A DNA stretch of 62,110 nucleotides, filler included, from Actinomycetota bacterium (GCA_009886115.1; 4 parts of 4 records of this genome joined end to end with filler, not necessarily neighbours in it); one strand, 5' to 3'. Shown: positions 28,543-35,391, counted from the first letter of the whole stretch. Program-made: numbers and translations. The notes: generated from the sequence alone by a model not told the origin.

Positions 28543-28651
28543 CTTGCTAGCCCCACAAACACGGACAACCTGCAGGTCAGAGGCACCGAGTTGTCGAGCA
28601 GCATCGCATCGGACGGACAGGATCGCCGGTGTCTGCGAGCACAGCGCTCGG

Positions 28652-28664
28652 ACAACTGATTACT
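28652..28664 (+). repeat. 13-bp direct repeat ACAACTGATTACT (second copy 30492-30504), candidate arm-type site of module 1
   Basis: Identical copies, each 65-95 bp inside an att core and each preceded by GGTGTYTGCG. Confidence 0.6.
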
Positions 28665-28822
28665 CCTCATTTCGGACGTGTGGTTGCATCGCCTCCCGCT
28701 CGCTTCGGGTTCGATCCTCCGCCTCGCCGAGTCCTGGCGGCGGAGCCTCGAGGCGTCCAACTGGTCAGCTGTGATCGGCGTGAGATGTGCGACTGTGAAG
28801 CGGTCGCACTCGGCGCCGTGGG

Positions 28823-30004
28823 TCATTGGCTGCGTTGCGCGTCGGGGATGGTTCGTTTCAGGAACTCGTCGAAGAGGGGCACGGTGAATGCGGTATCGCC
28901 GTGTGCTGGGCTGTAGATCATGCCCTTGATGATGAGGCCGGACCGTCGCGGTGCGACCGACTCCACCCGGAGGCGTAGCGCAGCTGCGATGTCACCCGAT
29001 CGGTGCGGACCCGGACCGAGTTCGGCCATGGCCCGTAGGTACTCCCGCTCCTTCGGCGTCAGCCGGTCGAGTCGGACCAGGAAGAAGTTGCGATCGAGTT
29101 GGTCGATGACGAACGGCCGGGCGGCCCGTACGTCGTCGAGCGTGATCGGGGTCGTGCTGGCGAGGTTCCAGACGTGGAAGCCCCACTCCTGGAGGAAGTA
29201 CGGGTAACCCTTGGACTCCGAGACGATGAGCTCGACGGCTGCTCGCTCGAACGTCACCTCGAGGTTGTGCGCGGGGATCTCGATGGCGGCGGCCGCGTCG
29301 CTGGAGCCGAGTGATCCGATCACCGGGAAGTCGAACAGTCGCTCGGCGTACGACTTAGCGTCGCCGGCGAGCCCGGGAAGCTGTGGCAGGCCAGCGCCGA
29401 CGAGCACGATTGGTAGGTTGCGCTGTGTCGTGCGGTGGATGGCGGTGATGAGGGCGGCGAGCTCGTCTGCGGCGAGGTACTGCACTTCGTCTATGGCGAG
29501 GAGCATGCCGGTGCTGTCTTCGGCGGCGGCTTCTCCGATTGTGACGAGCAGGTCCGTGAGGTCCTCGCTGAGCAGACCTGAGTCGGCGAGGCCGGCTTCG
29601 GGTTCGACGCCGATCGAGATTGCGCTGCCGTCGGGGAGTTGGCAGCTGAACGAGCGGAGCGCACCGAGCGCTCGGGCGATGAGGCGTCGGGCGGGTCCAC
29701 TGGTATTGAGTGCCAGCAGGACCTTGCGCAGTCGAATGGCGAGCAGCATCTGGAAGTCGCCGGTCTCCGGCGCTTCGATGAAAGCGACCTGCATGCCTTG
29801 GCGTTCGGCCACCTCGGCGAACCGGTTGAGTAGCACGGTCTTGCCGACGCCGCGTAGGCCGATCGGCATGTAGCTCTTGCCCGGGCGGTTGTCGAGCGCC
29901 CGACGAATCGTCACATCGAACCGGTCGATGAGATCGTCACGTCCGAGAAGTGCCGGCGGTGTCGTACCGGCCCCCGGGCGGTAGGGGTTGTCGAACCGGT
30001 CCAT
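28823..30004 (-). CDS. AAA_16-like P-loop ATPase with probable C-terminal winged HTH
   Basis: NPYRPGAG..P..L.GR, GLRGVGKT, LAIDEVQ, GYPYFLQ, R..LI.KGMIY. Confidence 0.9.
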   Translation of the reverse strand: MDRFDNPYRPGAGTTPPALLGRDDLIDRFDVTIRRALDNRPGKSYMPIGLRGVGKTVLLNRFAEVAERQGMQVAFIEAPETGDFQMLLAIRLRKVLLALNTSGPARRLIARALGALRSFSCQLPDGSAISIGVEPEAGLADSGLLSEDLTDLLVTIGEAAAEDSTGMLLAIDEVQYLAADELAALITAIHRTTQRNLPIVLVGAGLPQLPGLAGDAKSYAERLFDFPVIGSLGSSDAAAAIEIPAHNLEVTFERAAVELIVSESKGYPYFLQEWGFHVWNLASTTPITLDDVRAARPFVIDQLDRNFFLVRLDRLTPKEREYLRAMAELGPGPHRSGDIAAALRLRVESVAPRRSGLIIKGMIYSPAHGDTAFTVPLFDEFLKRTIPDAQRSQ

Positions 30005-30569
30005 GTTGAACGATCTTATCTGATCTTATGTCTCTTATTCAACAGCTGGCTAAGAAATGTCAAGGCTCCCGAACCAGGCGCGGGCTGCGAACGAGATCGG
30101 GGTCGAGCCCGATCCTGTCGGAACGATTCCGATCCAGGATCGGTGAAGCGACTCGCTATGTGAGTTGCGCGGAGGTCACGATGCCGCTGTGCCCCCCTCC
30201 CCGGGGGGAGGAGCTCGGCTCGTTGGTGTCGCCGTTCGAGTGGCAGGCGACCGTCGGCGTCTCTTTCGCTGGGTCGATCCTGCGTGGGTGGTCGTCGTGG
30301 GCCAGGTTGGCTTCTTCGACCAGTTCCCACGGTGCTGATGAGCCGATACTCACAGTGCGTGGCGATCGACTCGACGGGTTGTTTCGATGAGAGGCTCCTC
30401 TGGCGGGCGGAGGCGGATCGGGAGGCACTTCGGGTCGGCGGGCCAGTAGGATGGTGGCGTCGCCGTAGCCGTACTTGGAAGGTGTTTGCGTACAACTGAT
30501 TACTTTACCCTCGACGCTCGACCCCGAGCAGGGAATACGCTGGTGAGTACAGCGTGAGGGGTCTGATAG

Positions 30570-30612
30570 CTGATAAGGATGAGGTCGCAAGTTCGATTCT
30601 TGCTAGCCCCAC
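30570..30612 (+). repeat. tRNA-Ile(GAU) 3'-half duplicate (att core)
   Basis: CTGATAA loop, GGATG, AGGTC, GCAAG-TTCGATT-CTTGC T-arm, TAGCCCC-A; no D-arm or 5' acceptor strand upstream. Confidence 0.88.
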
Positions 30613-30681
30613 CCAGCATTTCCGCAGGTCAGAGTATATTTCCGAGGTGTCTCGGAGACCGTCGGGAAGGGCCTGAAACGG

Positions 30682-30710
30682 GTGTCGTGCCACAAGCGTG
30701 CCACTACGAA
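30682..30710 (+). repeat. 29-bp direct repeat GTGTCGTGCCACAAGCGTGCCACTACGAA (second copy 35199-35227), candidate arm-type site of module 2
   Basis: Identical copies with internal CGTGCCAC at 11-bp period; extra inverted copy at 35228-35236. Confidence 0.8.
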
Positions 30711-30742
30711 ACCGGGGGGCACTCGACGTGTGGACAGGCAAC

Positions 30743-31642
30743 ATGCCGACGTACGGGGAGTTGATGTTGCCAGTTCTTCGGGCGGTCGTCGCGCTTGGTG
30801 GTTCGGGGAGTAGTCGGGAGATCACGGATCAAGTGGTACGAGACCAGAGCTTCTCGGAGGAGATGCTCACGGTCTGCTATCCGACCGGCAAGGAGAAGTC
30901 GGTGTTGCTCGACCGCCTCGACTGGGCTCGCTCCTACTGCAAGCTCGGTGACATTCTGGAGAGCCCGAAACGTGGCCTGTTTTTGGTCACCGATACAGGC
31001 CGAGAGCTGTCTGAGCTGCCGGACGACCGGGCTGTCGAGGCGCTCAAGGAGATCGATCGGGAGGTTCGGCATCAGCGTGGGCGAACAGCCCCAGGCGGCT
31101 CAGAGACGATTCCTGAGATCGTCGGCGGAGATCAGCCCGCCCTCGCGGCGGTCGATGAGGAAGATGACGATGGTGCGTGGCGACGCCAGCTCCTTGAACG
31201 GCTCCATCAGCTCTCGCCTGCCGCGTTCGAGCGGTTCACCCTATATCTGCTCCGGGCGTACGGGATGGAGCTGCGCCGGCAAGGCGGCCCAGGCGACGAG
31301 GGCATCGACGGAATAGGTACGGCACCGCTCACTGATGTGCTGACGACCACGGTCGCAGTGCAAGCGAAACGCTACGAGCCGGGGGGGACCATCGGACGAG
31401 AGATCGTTGCTCTCTTCCAGAGCGACGCGACGGCGGCCGGCGCCGAACATGGTGTCCTCGTGACCACGGCGCGCTTCTCCGAGCCCGCCAGGAAGGCAGC
31501 TCTGGGAAGGACGCCAACGATTGATCTGATCGACGGTGACCGATTGGCTGACCTGTGTCTGCGCCAAGAGGTCGGTGTCGTCACCCGACCGGTGGTGCGG
31601 CACGAGTGGTTCAACCGGTTCGAGGACGAACGCGATCGATAG
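30743..31642 (+). CDS. mrr: Mrr-family type IV restriction endonuclease
   Basis: Mrr_N (MPTY.ELM.PVL...R..WARSY...LES.KRG) and Mrr_cat (FE.....LL...G, GDEGIDG, VQAKRY, G.LVTT..F, LIDG..L). Confidence 0.93.
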   Translation: MPTYGELMLPVLRAVVALGGSGSSREITDQVVRDQSFSEEMLTVCYPTGKEKSVLLDRLDWARSYCKLGDILESPKRGLFLVTDTGRELSELPDDRAVEALKEIDREVRHQRGRTAPGGSETIPEIVGGDQPALAAVDEEDDDGAWRRQLLERLHQLSPAAFERFTLYLLRAYGMELRRQGGPGDEGIDGIGTAPLTDVLTTTVAVQAKRYEPGGTIGREIVALFQSDATAAGAEHGVLVTTARFSEPARKAALGRTPTIDLIDGDRLADLCLRQEVGVVTRPVVRHEWFNRFEDERDR

Positions 31643-31870
31643 GGGACTGGCCAGTTGCTCCGGTCGGGCTCGCTTCCGACAGGCGTGACACCCTCAGACA
31701 GACCGCCTCCCGGTCGAGACGACAGCGCCGACACTCCGATGCCCGGCCATCCACCGCTGCGCTCCGCCGGTGAAACTCCTCAAGCGGAAGCACTGGACAT
31801 CGAGAGAGGCCCTCATCTGGCCGACCCCTGGTGCCCGCAGCACCAGGGAATTCCGTGACCGTTGACATGC

Positions 31871-32029
31871 GATCTCCCACCGATCGAGATCGTGCACGTC
31901 CACCCGGCTGCGGTGCTCGATGCCGTGGCCGACGCGCTGCGTCCGCTCGGAGTGACGATCGCCGAGACGCACCTCTCGCCGAGCCGGGTCCGCGAGTTGG
32001 TGGAGGCTGCTGCGTGCCCGCCTCGGTGA
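31871..32029 (+). pseudogene. Possible C-terminal relic of a xanthine/CO dehydrogenase molybdopterin subunit
   Basis: Own translation DLPPIEIVH-VHPAAVLDAVADALRPLGVTIAETHLSPSRVRELV resembles CoxL/XdhA C-termini; no start codon. Confidence 0.55.
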
Positions 32030-33472
32030 TCAGCGGGTCGCTCGTGAGTCTGCGCCGTCCTGACGGAGACGGGCGGCGACGAGCAGCCAGCAGCCGCTGC
32101 CGGCGACGAGGAGACCCAAGAGCATGGCGACGGTCAAGTTGCGACCGGTGAACGCCAACCCGCCGCCCGCAGCGTTGCTCTCGTCGACGCTGAGGGCGAC
32201 GGTCACCGGTGTGGAGCCGGCGACGGTGACCGTGCGTGCTTTTGAGAGTTCGCCGGTGGCCGGGTCCTCGCCGACGCACTGGTAGCTGCCGTGCGGGAGG
32301 TTCTCGGCGGCGAACCCGCCGTCTGCGCCTGAGTAGACCGTCAACGACGTGTCATCGCCGGTGCCTCGGGTCCCGTCGATGCCACCCCACGTGCAGGTGA
32401 CGACGGCACCGGCGACAACCGCGGCGGTGTCCTGGTCGCGCACGACACCCACGATGGTGCCGTCGCCTCGAGCGGCGAAGTCGGCGACGGCCGTCCCGCC
32501 GGTGACGACCACGACGACATGCCAGTCGACGACCGTGTCGCTGTCCCACGTGAGTACCACGTCGGTGCTCGGCGTGTACGCCACAACCTCGTAGGTCCCG
32601 CTCGTCACGTTCGTGAACAAGAACGACCCGTCGGCGCCCGTCGTGGTCGACGCGATGCCGAGCACGACGGTGACGCCAGCGAGCGGCAACTCTTCGGCGT
32701 CGCGCACCGAGTCACCATCGCTGTCGATCCAGACGTGGCCCTCGACCCGGCCCGGCGCCTCCCCGGCTCCGCCGCCTGAGCCGCTCGATCCGGCCGTCGT
32801 CGAGGTGGTCCCGGTCGATGAGCCGGAGCCTGTTCCTCCGGTCGCGCCGGAACCGGCCGTTGTGGATGTCGTGGACATCGCGGTGGTCGTAGTTGTCGAG
32901 GTCGAGAAGCTCGGCGAGGATCCCGTCGGGTTCGAGAACGACCCGATCGCGGCGAGGAGCGTAGCGTCTTCCTCGGCTCCCTGGTCATCGAGGTCGGCCA
33001 GGATCGATGAGGTCGACTCGCCGGCGGCCACCTCGGTGTTGAAGAACTGCTGGGCGGACATCGCCCCGCAGGTCCCGGCGTAGGAGGTCCCACCCACGCT
33101 CGTGCCGTTGAAGATGGCCTGGCCGACGGTGGTCCAGTTCTGGCCCGAGCCGTGGCCGTCCGATGCCGCGTCGGGGATGACATCACCCCAGTTCTTGGCG
33201 TTGGGTGGGTAGGCGAACGACGGGTCGAACGGCGATCCCGCGTGATGGCTGTGATCGTTGCCGCCCGACCCGTTCACCGCCGACACGCTGACCGTGATCC
33301 GTCGGTACGGGTTCGTCGTCGAGTGTGTCCTGTGACAGATCGTGATACGGCTGGGTGCCGCCTCGGCGGGTGAAGGGCTCTGTACGAGGATGGCGCTTGC
33401 TGCAACGAGCATGAGGCCGGTCAGACAGCGGAACATGCGGGCGCGGCGGGCGCGGGGCGAAATGGGGTTCAT
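32030..33472 (-). CDS. Secreted, probably sortase-anchored surface protein with SdrD-B-like domain
   Basis: Signal peptide (..PAEA), CHRTHSTTNPY domain, S/T/G linker, GHVWIDSDGD..RD.EE.PLAGVTV, LAFTG + TM + basic tail. Confidence 0.82.
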   Translation of the reverse strand: MNPISPRARRARMFRCLTGLMLVAASAILVQSPSPAEAAPSRITICHRTHSTTNPYRRITVSVSAVNGSGGNDHSHHAGSPFDPSFAYPPNAKNWGDVIPDAASDGHGSGQNWTTVGQAIFNGTSVGGTSYAGTCGAMSAQQFFNTEVAAGESTSSILADLDDQGAEEDATLLAAIGSFSNPTGSSPSFSTSTTTTTAMSTTSTTAGSGATGGTGSGSSTGTTSTTAGSSGSGGGAGEAPGRVEGHVWIDSDGDSVRDAEELPLAGVTVVLGIASTTTGADGSFLFTNVTSGTYEVVAYTPSTDVVLTWDSDTVVDWHVVVVVTGGTAVADFAARGDGTIVGVVRDQDTAAVVAGAVVTCTWGGIDGTRGTGDDTSLTVYSGADGGFAAENLPHGSYQCVGEDPATGELSKARTVTVAGSTPVTVALSVDESNAAGGGLAFTGRNLTVAMLLGLLVAGSGCWLLVAARLRQDGADSRATR

Positions 33473-33539
33473 GGGAGGGCGTGTCGGCACCGCCGGCGAT
33501 CTCGATAGGTCTCGGGCGAGTTCTTCGAGACCACCGGGC

Positions 33540-33788
33540 CGATGACCGTTCGATGAGGTCGGGTCATCGTCGAACAGATCGGACAGTTTCAGCCCGAGCG
33601 CCGTAACGACGGCATCCGCCGAGCACCCGGCGCGACAGAACACGAGCGCCCTCCGTCGAGCCCCTCGGTCACGTCGAGTGATGGGTTCTGGTCGTCGTGC
33701 CCCGGGCACGCCTCCGCGAGCCCTCCTGGCGACCGCCACACCCGGCGGCGTCGAGGGCCTGCTTGAGCCGCTCCGTCGCGCCGCTCAC
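33540..33788 (-). pseudogene. Frameshifted primase zinc-binding domain relic
   Basis: CPGHDDQNPSLDV in one frame, LVFCRAGCSADAVVTALGL..SDLF in another; no TOPRIM or helicase follows. Confidence 0.75.
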
Positions 33789-33957
33789 GCCAACGCTCCG
33801 GGCTCGGGGTCGGCACCGGTCGCGCGTAGCCATATGCGACACGCCACCCACGGGCAACGCCACTGGTCGAGCGCCTGGAGCCGGCGCTCGCAGCGGCCAC
33901 AACCTGCGACCCCCCCAACCACAACGGCGCGCCCACCCGTGTGAGCGCCATACGCCG

Positions 33958-34179
33958 TCATCGCCCCGACTTGAGGCCAGGTACCCCGACCGGTTCGACG
34001 ACGGCCGCGTCAAGTAGCGCTTCGAGGTCGGCCACGTCGAACCGGATCGACCGGCCGACCTTGTAGAACCGGACGCGCCGCTCGGCGACGAGACGCCGCA
34101 GGTGTCGTTCGGACCGAGCGATGAGGGCTGCTGCTTCACCGATCGAGACGAGGTCTCGTCGGGCTGGAGTTCCGGCCAT
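33958..34179 (-). CDS. Excisionase-family HTH_17 protein
   Basis: SI.EAAALI..SER.LRRLVAERRV.FYKVGRSIRFD..DL; AGGAGG RBS. Confidence 0.9.
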   Translation of the reverse strand: MAGTPARRDLVSIGEAAALIARSERHLRRLVAERRVRFYKVGRSIRFDVADLEALLDAAVVEPVGVPGLKSGR

Positions 34180-34260
34180 GGGTGGCCTCCTTCGATGTCA
34201 GGTGGAGCCAACCGTGGACTCCGAAGCACTTGCGGACAACCCTGGTACGATGACTATCCG

Positions 34261-35148
34261 ATGACGCAGCCGGCAGACTTGAAGCTCGCGACGGAACTGG
34301 CCGGGATGCACGCGCCGTCGGGTCAGTTGACACGCCGGGTCGGCGCCACCCTCTGGCCCCGGCCGGCCCGCGTGTGGATCGACGGAGATCGGTTGTGCTC
34401 GGACCCGGGTCCTGGCGGTGTCGTCACCGTCGACGACACCGATCGGCTGCTCGAGCGTTTCCTCCGGCTGGCCGACTCGGACGAGCAGGAAATCGTGACG
34501 TTCGCGGCCCAGCTCGGCGTGCTCGGGATCTGTGCGCACGGCCTCCCGAGCACCCATGCAGCCCTGGCGGTGACCTTCCCCGATCGTGAGGGATGCAACC
34601 CGATCGGATGGCCGAGCCCCTACGAGCCGGTCCTGTACTGGCGGAGCCTCGCCCGGCAAGCCAAGGCGATCCTCCGGTGGGCGGGGCTGCTTCACCGGGG
34701 CCTCCCCGTCGACGACGAGATTCGGCTCACGGCCGCGCGTCTCGTGAACGAGACGATTCCGGACTTCGGAGGGCAGATCCTGATCCGTATGGAGGATGCC
34801 GACTTGCTCGTCGTCCACCTCGAAGATGCCGAGCCCACGTCAGAACAAGATCGGGTGCAGCTCGGGTGGCTCGTCGACCAGTGGCTCAGGATCGGCGACG
34901 TGCGACTCGCGTTCTCGTTTGCCGGCTCGAAGGGCACACTCCGCTTCGAGCCGGGTGGGCTCTTCGGCTCCGTGGCCACACACGTCGCGCTGGCCGTCGC
35001 CCGATCCGCAGGGATCGCGTTCTGCGCGAGTTGCACCCAAGCGTTCCCGCCCAGGCGGTCGACGCAGAAGTACTGCTCCCGCTGTGGCGACAGGGCCCGG
35101 ATGCGCGACGCCCAGCGAGCACGCAGGGCCCGCCGGCGTAGCGGTTGA
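34261..35148 (+). CDS. CGNR-zinc-finger-like putative regulator
   Basis: C-terminal CASC..F......KYCSRCGDRARMR..R; divergent from xis. Confidence 0.7.
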   Translation: MTQPADLKLATELAGMHAPSGQLTRRVGATLWPRPARVWIDGDRLCSDPGPGGVVTVDDTDRLLERFLRLADSDEQEIVTFAAQLGVLGICAHGLPSTHAALAVTFPDREGCNPIGWPSPYEPVLYWRSLARQAKAILRWAGLLHRGLPVDDEIRLTAARLVNETIPDFGGQILIRMEDADLLVVHLEDAEPTSEQDRVQLGWLVDQWLRIGDVRLAFSFAGSKGTLRFEPGGLFGSVATHVALAVARSAGIAFCASCTQAFPPRRSTQKYCSRCGDRARMRDAQRARRARRRSG

Positions 35149-35326
35149 GGCGAGCCAGTGAAGAGCCCGCAAGCGACCTACGTGCTTGGGTCATGCAAGT
35201 GTCGTGCCACAAGCGTGCCACTACGAAGTGGCACGAGGGGTAAATCATGGTCGCTCATGGTCAGACGGAAATGGTGTCTGACCAGGAGATTGACCGTATC
35301 TCCGCAGGTGGCGGAACCGGCCCTCG

Positions 35327-35377
35327 CATCCCTGATAAGGAGGATGAGGTCGCAAGTTCGATTCTTGCTAGCCCCAC
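35327..35377 (+). repeat. tRNA-Ile(GAU) anticodon arm + 3' half (att core) with a 3-nt GGA insertion
   Basis: CATCC-CTGATAA-[GGA]-GGATG, then identical to the 30570 copy. Confidence 0.88.
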
Positions 35378-35391
35378 AAACACGGACAACC

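Follow-up and report, generated by a model that had tools for sequence, protein, structure and literature searches.

The contig analysed here probably derives from an array at a tRNA-Ile gene in which remnants of integrative elements, decayed and without an integrase, stand in tandem, with the assembly having broken at the repeated att site. It carries two islets, A (approximately 2.0 kb) and B (4.77 kb), which are unrelated to each other and are best read as decayed integrative elements, resembling CIMEs, that accreted one behind the other. We infer that this contig has its place in the chromosome and that the array arose by serial integration of elements followed by their decay.

The contig, G000:C164, occupies positions 28543-35391 of the window, which is the whole 62,110-nt stretch of DNA (filler included) that was analysed, and belongs to a metagenome-assembled genome (MAG) of 224 contigs. 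It is a separate contig, with N...TTAATTAATTAA...N spacers on either side in the window. Its features are listed in Table 1.

Table 1. Features of the contig, in coordinates of the window
Feature	Position	Strand	Remarks
Left terminal 28-nt repeat	28543..28570	+	tRNA-Ile 3' end, 14 nt; flank, 14 nt
Conserved post-tRNA flank, P'-arm-like	28557..28700	+	Seven flank copies aligned, two species
Motif GCAGGTCAGAG	28572-28582		Within post-tRNA flank
Motif ACAACTGATTAC, first copy	28652-28663		In post-tRNA flank
AAA_16/AAA_22 P-loop ATPase, 393 aa (islet A cargo)	28823..30004	-	Pfam PF13191, E 7.4e-14
Conserved 'right end' of islet A, P-arm-like	30341..30569	+	BLAST
Motif ACAACTGATTAC, second copy	30492-30503		In islet A right end
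attL of islet B, internal tRNA-Ile 3' fragment	30570..30612	+	43 nt, anticodon loop to end
29-nt arm-like repeat, copy 1	30682..30710	+	Contains two GTGCCAC; 70 nt inward from attL
Mrr-type type IV methyl-directed restriction endonuclease	30743..31642	+	Pfam Mrr_N and Mrr_cat
Secreted surface protein	32030..33472	-	Signal peptide, SdrD_B/CarboxypepD_reg domain, C-terminal LAFTG-type anchor
Excisionase-family HTH_17 protein, 73 aa	33958..34179	-	Pfam PF12728, E 8.8e-9
Protein P0001, 317 aa	34195..35148	+	C-terminal C4 zinc ribbon, basic tail; large uncharacterised family
29-nt arm-like repeat, copy 2	35199..35234	+	Plus inverted GTGGCAC; 90-130 nt inside attR
attR of islet B, terminal tRNA-Ile 3' fragment	35325..35377	+	Homology from anticodon stem on
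Right terminal 28-nt repeat	35364..35391	+	Contig ends where paralogous copies diverge

It is apparent that the contig carries one and the same 28-nt sequence at its two ends (0 mismatches); two matches were found in none of 100 dinucleotide shuffles. The start-to-start spacing of the two copies is 6821 bp, and the intact tRNA-Ile(GAT) gene, placed by ARAGORN at C199:29105-29179, ends 14 nt into the repeat. The preliminary description, which had reported identical ends that extend 14 nt into non-tRNA flank and, when joined, give a 6821-bp unit with two att cores, was thus accurate on these points, and its reading of the ends as att-type repeats derived from tRNA-Ile is borne out. A second, internal tRNA fragment is the one designated attL in Table 1. 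The 28-mer occurs four times in the assembly, namely at both ends of this contig, at C199:29166, where it follows the intact tRNA gene, and at C143:156. The last two copies are internal to their contigs, and that on C143, which precedes a gnd gene, sits in a shortened tRNA-Ile fragment. A degenerate, mutated copy is found at C2:3307-3357. Where the copies diverge, the base is T in C199 and at the head of C164, and A in C143, and it is at this base that the right end of C164 stops. The four copies and the position of this stop favour the second choice of the preliminary description, namely that the assembly broke where an att flank is repeated. Upstream of the 28-mer at least 16 further nt are common to all copies, so that its left end is no repeat boundary and the left end of the contig is left unexplained by a simple graph branch.

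Overlaps between oriented contig ends are frequent in this assembly (174 of 448 ends), and the self-overlap of C164 spans only 28 nt, as against the 109 nt of the assembler's usual graph overlap. Two other contigs, C91 and C195, overlap themselves; the overlap of each recurs in a third contig, a pattern that marks a repeat-flanked insert in an assembly graph. The smallest contig of the MAG is 2476 bp, contigs below approximately 2.5 kb having been dropped. An Rfam scan gave four matches, all far under gathering scores.

Islet A is bounded by att repeats consisting of the flank copy from 28543 onward and the tRNA fragment at 30570. The head of the contig matches the tail of C199 with 81 % identity over approximately 220 nt, the first 61 nt being exact. 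The conserved flank contains GGACAAC/GTTGTC three times and can form an imperfect long hairpin, for which the consensus fold as a structured RNA is weak (alifold -9.1). The motif GCAGGTCAGAG lies 11-16 nt past the tRNA end at tRNA-Ile, at tRNA-Ala (C85) and at tRNA-Met (C57); on C85 a tyrosine integrase gene, identified by an integrase domain match, lies approximately 100 nt beyond it. BLAST matches to the right end of islet A were obtained at C143:26-141 (90 %), on C2, and on G001:C77 and G001:C74 of a sister species.

Islet B is enclosed by direct repeats of 37-43 nt (30570-30612 and 35335-35377), of which 37 nt (35341-35377) are identical. Its attL matches C199:29137-29179 at 100 %, and ARAGORN found no whole tRNA there; its attR matches C199:29130-29193 at 95.5 % (BLAST) and carries a 3-nt GGA insertion at 35338-35340. 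The two 29-nt arm-like repeats are identical (30682-30710 and 35199-35227). The pattern GTGCCAC(2-8 nt)GTGCCAC was found at five places in the genome, and the identical spacing and 29-mer solely at the two islet B copies.

Among the islet B genes, the Mrr gene was recognized by PADLOC as mREase_IV (E 1.9e-32); its ORF is listed from a GTG at 30698, and the ATG at 30743 is the likely start. The open frame of the surface protein runs 89 codons further upstream, to 33739, and this extension has a weak PHROG match to 'DNA primase' (E 0.0011, 35 residues). Its interpretation as a primase remnant was unsupported by BLASTP against a Prim-Pol neighbour, by Pfam, by tblastn and by a longer-protein search, and the match is regarded as a weak lead only. 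The HTH_17 protein also matches NCBIfam TIGR01764 'excise' (E 7.9e-10) and a PHROG excisionase, and is the sole counterpart on the contig (xis-like) of the AICE gene set of int, xis, rep and FtsK-like tra.

No PF00589 or PF00239 domain was detected on the contig, and no replication domain scored above threshold in Pfam, NCBIfam or PHROGs, in keeping with the absence of recombinase and replication genes noted in the preliminary description. Tyrosine recombinases are likewise absent from every array contig of G000 and of the sister species G001, and tblastn searches of these contigs for integrase remnants, with 12 integrase ORFs of the genome, gave nothing below E 0.05. These ORFs were drawn from the 16 matches to PF00589 elsewhere in the genome, one of which lies beside the tRNA-Ala with GCAGGTCAGAG. 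Thus, of an intact tRNA-Ile and an adjacent integrase, both of which the preliminary description had suggested locating, the former was found on C199 and the latter on none of the array contigs.

The protein P0001 was compared with sequence and structure collections. A word-index protein search returned only the query itself, but an exhaustive HMMER search found at least 2273 cluster representatives at E<=1e-3; none of 60 family members scanned matched Pfam at E<=0.01. The ESM Atlas gave hypothetical proteins only, as did the source names; BFVD gave no named match, and a protein-guided scan with P0001 gave two distant partial matches only. The top structural match with both aligners, albeit weak, was 3h0n (Foldseek E 0.072; VIA Z 7.1, rmsd 5.1, 150 aligned), a structure representing the DUF1470-type (ABATE/CGNR zinc-finger) regulators. 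Relatives were examined in context in four other genomes: in G149 a tyrosine integrase and tRNA-Phe come after the gene; in G295 the gene and those for HTH_17 and Prim-Pol are oriented divergently, with a serine recombinase approximately 4 kb away; in G311 the gene is found with AAA_25 and phage protease/terminase genes; and in G298 with WhiB and AAA_25. Recombinase genes adjoin two of the four and replication genes three, and three of the four lie in recombinase- or replication-bearing elements. A role for P0001 as a novel recombinase was rejected, as intact relatives adjoin recombinases of their own and the fold bears a weak resemblance to that of a DUF1470-type regulator; the protein probably binds DNA and regulates integrative elements. 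Together with the excisionase-family gene, the proximity of P0001 relatives to recombinase, Prim-Pol or AAA_25 genes suggests that islet B may descend from an autonomous element.

In the sister species, a homologue of islet A with 90.5 % identity over C164:1-1803 is situated on G001:C74, inside a 40.9-kb contig, and is preceded by a right end, a tRNA fragment and a flank. This identity (over 1.8 kb) is close to the 88-92 % between G000 and G001 in the core DNA on which the tRNA lies. The tRNA-Ile of G001 is followed by a flank, a HigB/HigA-like pair and a right end, and the islet content of the two species differs. Islet B gave more than gene-fragment matches in none of 40 genomes (G001 and 39 other relatives), and the searches revealed no intact close relative of it.

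Sequencing depth was assessed in Logan k=31 contigs from four public metagenome runs. Pieces of C164 had k-mer depths of 5.1-8.05 in run X1, versus 9.54 for the intact-tRNA contig, and of 3.9-6.89 in run X4, versus 6.22. These depths, which amount in the two runs to approximately 0.5-1.1 times the value for the intact-tRNA contig, are averages over contigs of metagenomes that contain strain variants, and hence rough only. The exact repeat common to the copies is at least 51 nt long (84 nt with the T-type flank) and so exceeds k=31; no contig joined 35391 to 28571, but such a junction would be invisible in these contigs. A 37-nt exact pattern, chosen to be unique to the C164 right end, matched none of the metagenome contigs. 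Additional flank variants, absent from the MAG, were observed at places corresponding to 28695 and 28750. Two apparent joints, 30426>35348 (X4) and 30575>28618 (X1), were considered as rearrangements and rejected, being paralogous copies of the C143 junction and of a flank variant, respectively.

A plausible history of the locus can be drawn from these data. Related tyrosine-integrase elements would have integrated serially into the 3' end of tRNA-Ile(GAT), so that every junction in the array would resemble a whole attP, with a P-arm-like right end, a tRNA 3' fragment and a P'-arm-like flank. The elements would then have been stripped of the integrase and of most other genes and so have reached the state of CIMEs, islet A retaining its ATPase gene. 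Islet B would have been inserted later, into the tRNA fragment at the right end of islet A, and would have retained both att sites, the arm-like repeats and the genes for the excisionase-family protein, the zinc-ribbon protein, Mrr and the surface protein. Because the att repeat is multi-copy and strains in the metagenome probably differ at the tRNA-Ile locus, the assembler would have stopped at the repeat on both sides, and the identical 28-nt ends would follow.

It must be noted that no contig or read physically joins C164 to chromosomal DNA, and that, within the MAG, the 28-mer copies on C199 and C143 already have left and right contexts that pair with one another. Synteny with G001 suggests that C199, a missing toxin-antitoxin (TA) islet and C143 could complete the chain without C164, in which case only the end and the start of C164 would be unpaired, as expected from a circle or a tandem copy. 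The preliminary description had proposed exactly these, an excised 6.8-kb circle or a tandem amplification, neither of which received positive support. That C164 is a closed 6,821-bp circle of A and B, or a low-copy extrachromosomal form, excised by an integrase whose gene lies elsewhere in the cell, appears unlikely. Its identical ends, the unpaired contexts, the retention in islet B of an excisionase-family gene, both att sites and arm-like repeats, and the 16 PF00589 matches elsewhere, one by a tRNA-Ala with the same post-tRNA motif, would all accord with a circle. However, the contig has no replication gene; its depth, which the preliminary description had proposed comparing with that of the chromosome, is not elevated; excision of the composite would have to span three att copies; islet A is chromosomal in G001, with a divergence about that of core DNA; and the 6.8-kb unit consists of two unrelated islets, not of a single element. 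Unpaired contexts are moreover to be expected where small contigs were dropped from the MAG, and the public runs do hold flank variants that it lacks. Head-to-tail chromosomal amplification of A and B is very improbable: a collapsed tandem repeat would yield the same self-overlap signature, but the unique parts of C164 are no deeper than the single-copy tRNA contig, and the overlap falls far from the usual 109 nt.

The islets might instead be functional integrase-less cassettes with attP-like bounds, shuffled in trans by a tyrosine integrase from another locus (another tRNA), in the manner of an integron with tRNA-derived sites, with C164 as a segment of the array or as an intermediate that has been, or could be, excised. 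The recurrence of right-end and flank modules at junctions in two species, the repetition of ACAACTGATTAC and GGACAAC on both sides of the core, cargo of single genes or pairs of defence or TA type (ATPase, HigBA-like pair, Mrr), the lack of an integrase on the array contigs of both species and their unlike islet content are in line with such shuffling. Tandem accretion of related elements with deletion would, however, give the same architecture automatically, some junctions are visibly degraded (the shortened C143 fragment, the mutated C2 copy), and an excised or empty-site form was not observed, so that we assign this alternative a low probability. Islet B, given its intact att sites and arm-like repeats, might nevertheless be excised in trans. 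That C164 is chimeric or mis-binned, and foreign to the genome, is extremely unlikely; the source is a metagenome and the G+C content is 66.3 %, versus 70-71 % in neighbouring contigs, but islands are usually lower in G+C, the contig's ends and internal junction exactly match the genome's own tRNA-Ile and flank, and the sister species has its islet A homologue in the corresponding array.

Taken together, the data argue for a decayed tandem array, a structure of an ordinary type. For draft and metagenome assemblies the lesson is that identical contig ends are no evidence of a circle if the repeat is an att site present in several copies. In a little-studied uncultured lineage, the locus offers a further case of integrative elements accreting in tandem and decaying at a tRNA gene, with cargo of defence type (a type IV restriction enzyme, an ATPase and a TA pair). 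If its cassettes are mobilised in trans, it would be a tractable model of integrase-less island mobility, and the large unnamed P0001 family may merit characterisation.

Several known systems invite comparison. Actinomycete elements of the pSAM2/AICE type integrate at tRNA 3' ends, encode an excisionase-family HTH protein and have arm-type repeats near att. C164 resembles them in all three respects but is without int, rep and an FtsK-like transfer gene; the comparator within this genome is the tyrosine integrase situated straight after tRNA-Ala, with GCAGGTCAGAG. The ssrA islands of Dehalococcoides reportedly carry their own integrases, unlike the array contigs described here. Those islands (PMC3146451) are similar in their serial arrangement at one small-RNA gene, with 3'-end copies bounding each, and in the strain variability of the locus. 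Integron cassette arrays are alike in having small, mostly single-gene units, recombination-site-like repeats between them and defence or TA cargo; here there is no IntI gene, attI or attC hairpin site, and the repeats are tRNA-derived att sequences with arm-like modules. CIMEs (cis-mobilizable elements), known together with site-specific tandem accretion from ICESt1/ICESt3-related elements in Streptococcus thermophilus, are matched by islets A and B in their att repeats and in the lack of recombinase and transfer genes. The present array, known from sequence alone, differs in having no assembled functional ICE or IME partner, in residing in an uncultured high-G+C bacterium rather than a Firmicute, and in retaining long conserved arm modules on both sides of its junctions.

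The third of the window's four contigs, separated from its neighbours by N/TTAATTAATTAA spacers, is C164 (6849 bp), from a draft assembly of 224 contigs and 5.45 Mb in which the smallest contig measures 2476 bp. The public runs that contain its sequence are freshwater-sediment metagenomes, so the source genome is a metagenome-assembled genome (MAG). A preliminary description had reported identical 28-nt contig ends lying in a tRNA-Ile, a second att core, and neither recombinase nor replication gene. All of these features are real. Both contig ends carry the 28-mer with 0 mismatches (two matches were found in 0 of 100 shuffles); it covers the last 14 nt of the intact tRNA-Ile(GAT) and the next 14 nt. 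That intact gene, which the description had left to be located, lies on another contig, C199. The second core is a further tRNA-Ile 3′ fragment inside C164. Searches of C164 revealed neither a recombinase of the tyrosine or serine type nor a replication domain, and no whole tRNA was detected there by ARAGORN.

The 28-mer occurs four times in the assembly. Two copies are the ends of C164; one is internal to C199, at the genuine tRNA and the flank downstream of it, and one is internal to C143, at a shortened tRNA fragment with a gnd gene after it. C2 carries a mutated copy. The C164 head (~220 nt) and the final 205 nt of C199 are paralogous, with 81% identity overall and an exact match over the first 61 nt. 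The right end of C164 falls at the exact base where the copies diverge: C199 and the C164 head have T at this site, C143 has A, and the sister species, G001, has C or A. The left edge of the 28-mer does not coincide with a boundary of the repeat, at least 16 further upstream nucleotides being common to all copies, and no assembly-graph explanation was found for this edge.

Overlapping contig ends are a general trait of this assembly. It is apparent that 174 of the 448 oriented ends overlap another end, by exactly 109 nt in 60 pairs and by 14–99 nt in the rest. The short overlaps are mostly microsatellites or unique two-copy sequences; that of C164 is the one also found internally in other contigs. 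Two other contigs overlap themselves, C91 (17465 bp, 109 nt) and C195 (5605 bp, 86 nt), and in each case the overlap also lies at the end of a third contig (C5 and C173, respectively), which is the graph signature of a segment with flanking direct repeats. These cases suggest additional inserts flanked by repeats, or else circular/integrated pairs. An overlap also joins C173 to C2, the contig carrying a degenerate tRNA-Ile fragment. The next contig of the window, C165, begins 73 nt upstream of a tRNA-Arg(TCT), another contig boundary near a tRNA.

The 6.8-kb unit of C164 is composite, consisting of two islets, A and B, whose features are listed in the table.

Features of C164 and related tRNA loci (window coordinates unless a contig is named)
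Feature	Coordinates	Details
Contig C164	28543-35391	
Islet A	28543 to ~30569	
Islet A, post-tRNA flank		conserved, ~150 nt; contains GCAGGTCAGAG, a long imperfect hairpin and ACAACTGATTAC
Islet A, AAA_16 ATPase		393 aa; minus strand; only gene
Islet A, 'right end'		conserved, ~230 nt; contains a second ACAACTGATTAC
GCAGGTCAGAG copies	28572-28582; 30624-30634	after tRNA-Ile fragments
Internal tRNA-Ile 3′ fragment	30570-30612	second att core
Islet B	30613-35330	bounded by internal and terminal tRNA fragments
Islet B gene		Mrr-type type IV restriction enzyme
Islet B gene		secreted surface protein with LAFTG-type anchor
Surface-protein frame extension	33473-33739	minus strand; 89 open codons upstream of signal peptide
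Islet B gene		73-aa excisionase-family HTH_17 protein
Islet B gene	34195-35148	317-aa protein (P0001), divergent from HTH_17 gene
8-bp inverted repeat	35259-35283	GGTCAGAC...GTCTGACC, perfect
tRNA-Arg(TCT)	35565-35639	on C165
tRNA-Ile(GAT)	C199: 29105-29179	intact
tRNA-Ala region	C85: 19961-20150	
tRNA-Met region	C57: 30224-30391	

The two tRNA fragments bounding islet B are identical to each other over 37 nt and to the tRNA over 43 nt; the terminal one, which contains a 3-nt insertion, reaches into the anticodon stem by an additional 9 nt. Identical copies of a 29-nt sequence with two GTGCCAC repeats lie just inside both ends of the islet, the right copy being followed by a third, inverted GTGGCAC. 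Judged from sequence, the repeats are placed as expected of putative arm-type sites in an attP, on its P and P′ arms. The gap between the 317-aa gene and the att core is only ~180 nt, and the recombinase of islet B is therefore absent rather than hidden. Between the att core and the right-hand arm-like repeat is the perfect inverted repeat, with a half-site similar to the GGTCAGAG in the post-tRNA motif. In the open extension of the surface-protein frame, residues 28–62 gave a weak PHROG 'DNA primase' match (E 0.0011) and nothing else matched; the extension may be a leftover of some lost replication gene, or due to chance.

If related elements integrated serially into one tRNA, each internal junction would consist of a P arm, a core and a P′ arm. 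The order observed in the array of islets 3′ of the tRNA-Ile is right end, tRNA fragment, flank, and the junctions would thus resemble whole attP sites because related elements integrated one after another into the same tRNA. The flank motif, the 11-mer GCAGGTCAGAG, sits 11–16 nt 3′ of three tRNA genes (Ile, Ala and Met) as well as after the tRNA-Ile fragments, and six of the eight genome-wide matches to GCAGGTCAGA[G/A] are in post-tRNA or post-fragment positions. At the tRNA-Ala, three GTTGTCAAC repeats lie beyond the motif, as does a tyrosine integrase gene, and a 47-nt copy of the tRNA-Ala 3′ end is found on another contig; at the tRNA-Met, the motif is present and the contig stops 91 nt later. 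The evidence from these two loci indicates that intact, integrase-bearing members of such elements exist in the genome. Most simply, the flank at tRNA-Ile would be element-derived, and GCAGGTCAGAG may be a trait conserved in the attP of a single family of integrative elements.

Comparison with G001, which is 88–92% identical around the tRNA-Ile, bears on the history of the array. There, the same flank follows the tRNA-Ile; next come a 1.25-kb islet and, where the contig stops, the conserved right end. Islet A has a homologue (90.5% identity over C164:1-1803) within a G001 contig of 40.9 kb; a long right end, a tRNA fragment and the flank precede this homologue, and DNA specific to G001 comes after it. 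Searches of G001 and 39 other relatives did not find islet B; two relatives gave gene-fragment matches only. These results indicate that islet A is an old chromosomal resident of the array and islet B a later, lineage-specific insertion into a tRNA fragment. PF00589 had no match on the three G001 array contigs and 24 matches elsewhere in G001; PF00239 had no match in either genome. From reading of the sequence alone, the first G001 islet (C77, reverse strand) carries a HigB/HigA-like pair, with a HigB/RelE-like toxin and an XRE-HTH antitoxin, and a loose end in one metagenome run, X4, suggests that, in the metagenome, C143 is preceded by the end of the same antitoxin gene. Downstream of the array, C143:1848-5908 is 96–98% identical to G001 C129, versus 88–92% around the tRNA-Ile, and the C143 gnd gene (~330-1826) is absent at the corresponding place in G001, which suggests recent exchange or a further mobile segment.

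We consider it probable that C164 represents two remnants resembling cis-mobilizable elements (CIMEs, decayed integrative elements that keep their att sites) in a tandem array at tRNA-Ile, the contig having been cut at the att repeat on both sides. That it is a free circle is unlikely; the one argument in its favour is that no att context in the assembly is unpaired except those at the end and start of C164. However, flank variants absent from the MAG were seen in the public runs (loose ends at 28695 and 28750), and these, together with the 2.5-kb contig cut-off, indicate that the MAG does not contain the whole array, which weakens that argument.

The elevated coverage expected of a circle or an amplification was not borne out by Logan contigs (k=31), a rough, contig-level measure of depth. 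In run X1, the C164 pieces ranged from 5.1 to 8.05 and the intact-tRNA contig, told by the absence of the 3-nt insertion and a loose end reading into the tRNA 5′ half, was at 9.54; in X4 the values were 3.9 to 6.89 and 6.22. Tandem amplification is accordingly very improbable. An active cassette system mobilized in trans is, like the circle, doubtful.

The 317-aa protein matched only itself in a word-index search; an exhaustive HMMER search gave 2273 cluster representatives at E≤1e–3 and 869 at E≤1e–10. In an alignment of 60 members, Cys/His positions are conserved and a CxxC...CxxC ribbon with a basic tail is shared at the C terminus. None of these 60 had a Pfam match, no NCBIfam model was found, and all names were 'hypothetical protein'. 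Sequence matches in the PDB were to small zinc fingers only. The AlphaFold model (pLDDT 77.7, pTM 0.71) was closest, weakly, to the DUF1470 protein 3h0n by Foldseek and VIA-align (E 0.072; Z 7.1, rmsd 5.1, 150 residues). Five of 301 genomes of the class, the source genome included, carry the family at E≤1e–10. In all four other contexts examined, relatives adjoin recombinase, Prim-Pol or AAA_25 genes: directly 5′ of a tyrosine integrase and then tRNA-Phe (G149); divergent from HTH_17 and Prim-Pol, with a serine recombinase ~4 kb off and RM/SNF2 cargo (G295); with WhiB and AAA_25 (G298); and, as a broken copy, with AAA_25 and phage protease/terminase genes (G311). The family is thus one of integrative or prophage-like elements, which come with a recombinase of their own, and for that reason the idea that the protein is the missing recombinase was set aside. 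We read it as a putative DNA-binding regulator.

C164 is chiefly of value as a caution against taking identical contig ends as circularity, and it also draws attention to a widespread, element-associated family of unnamed proteins. As a structure, it is a fresh example of an already known type.
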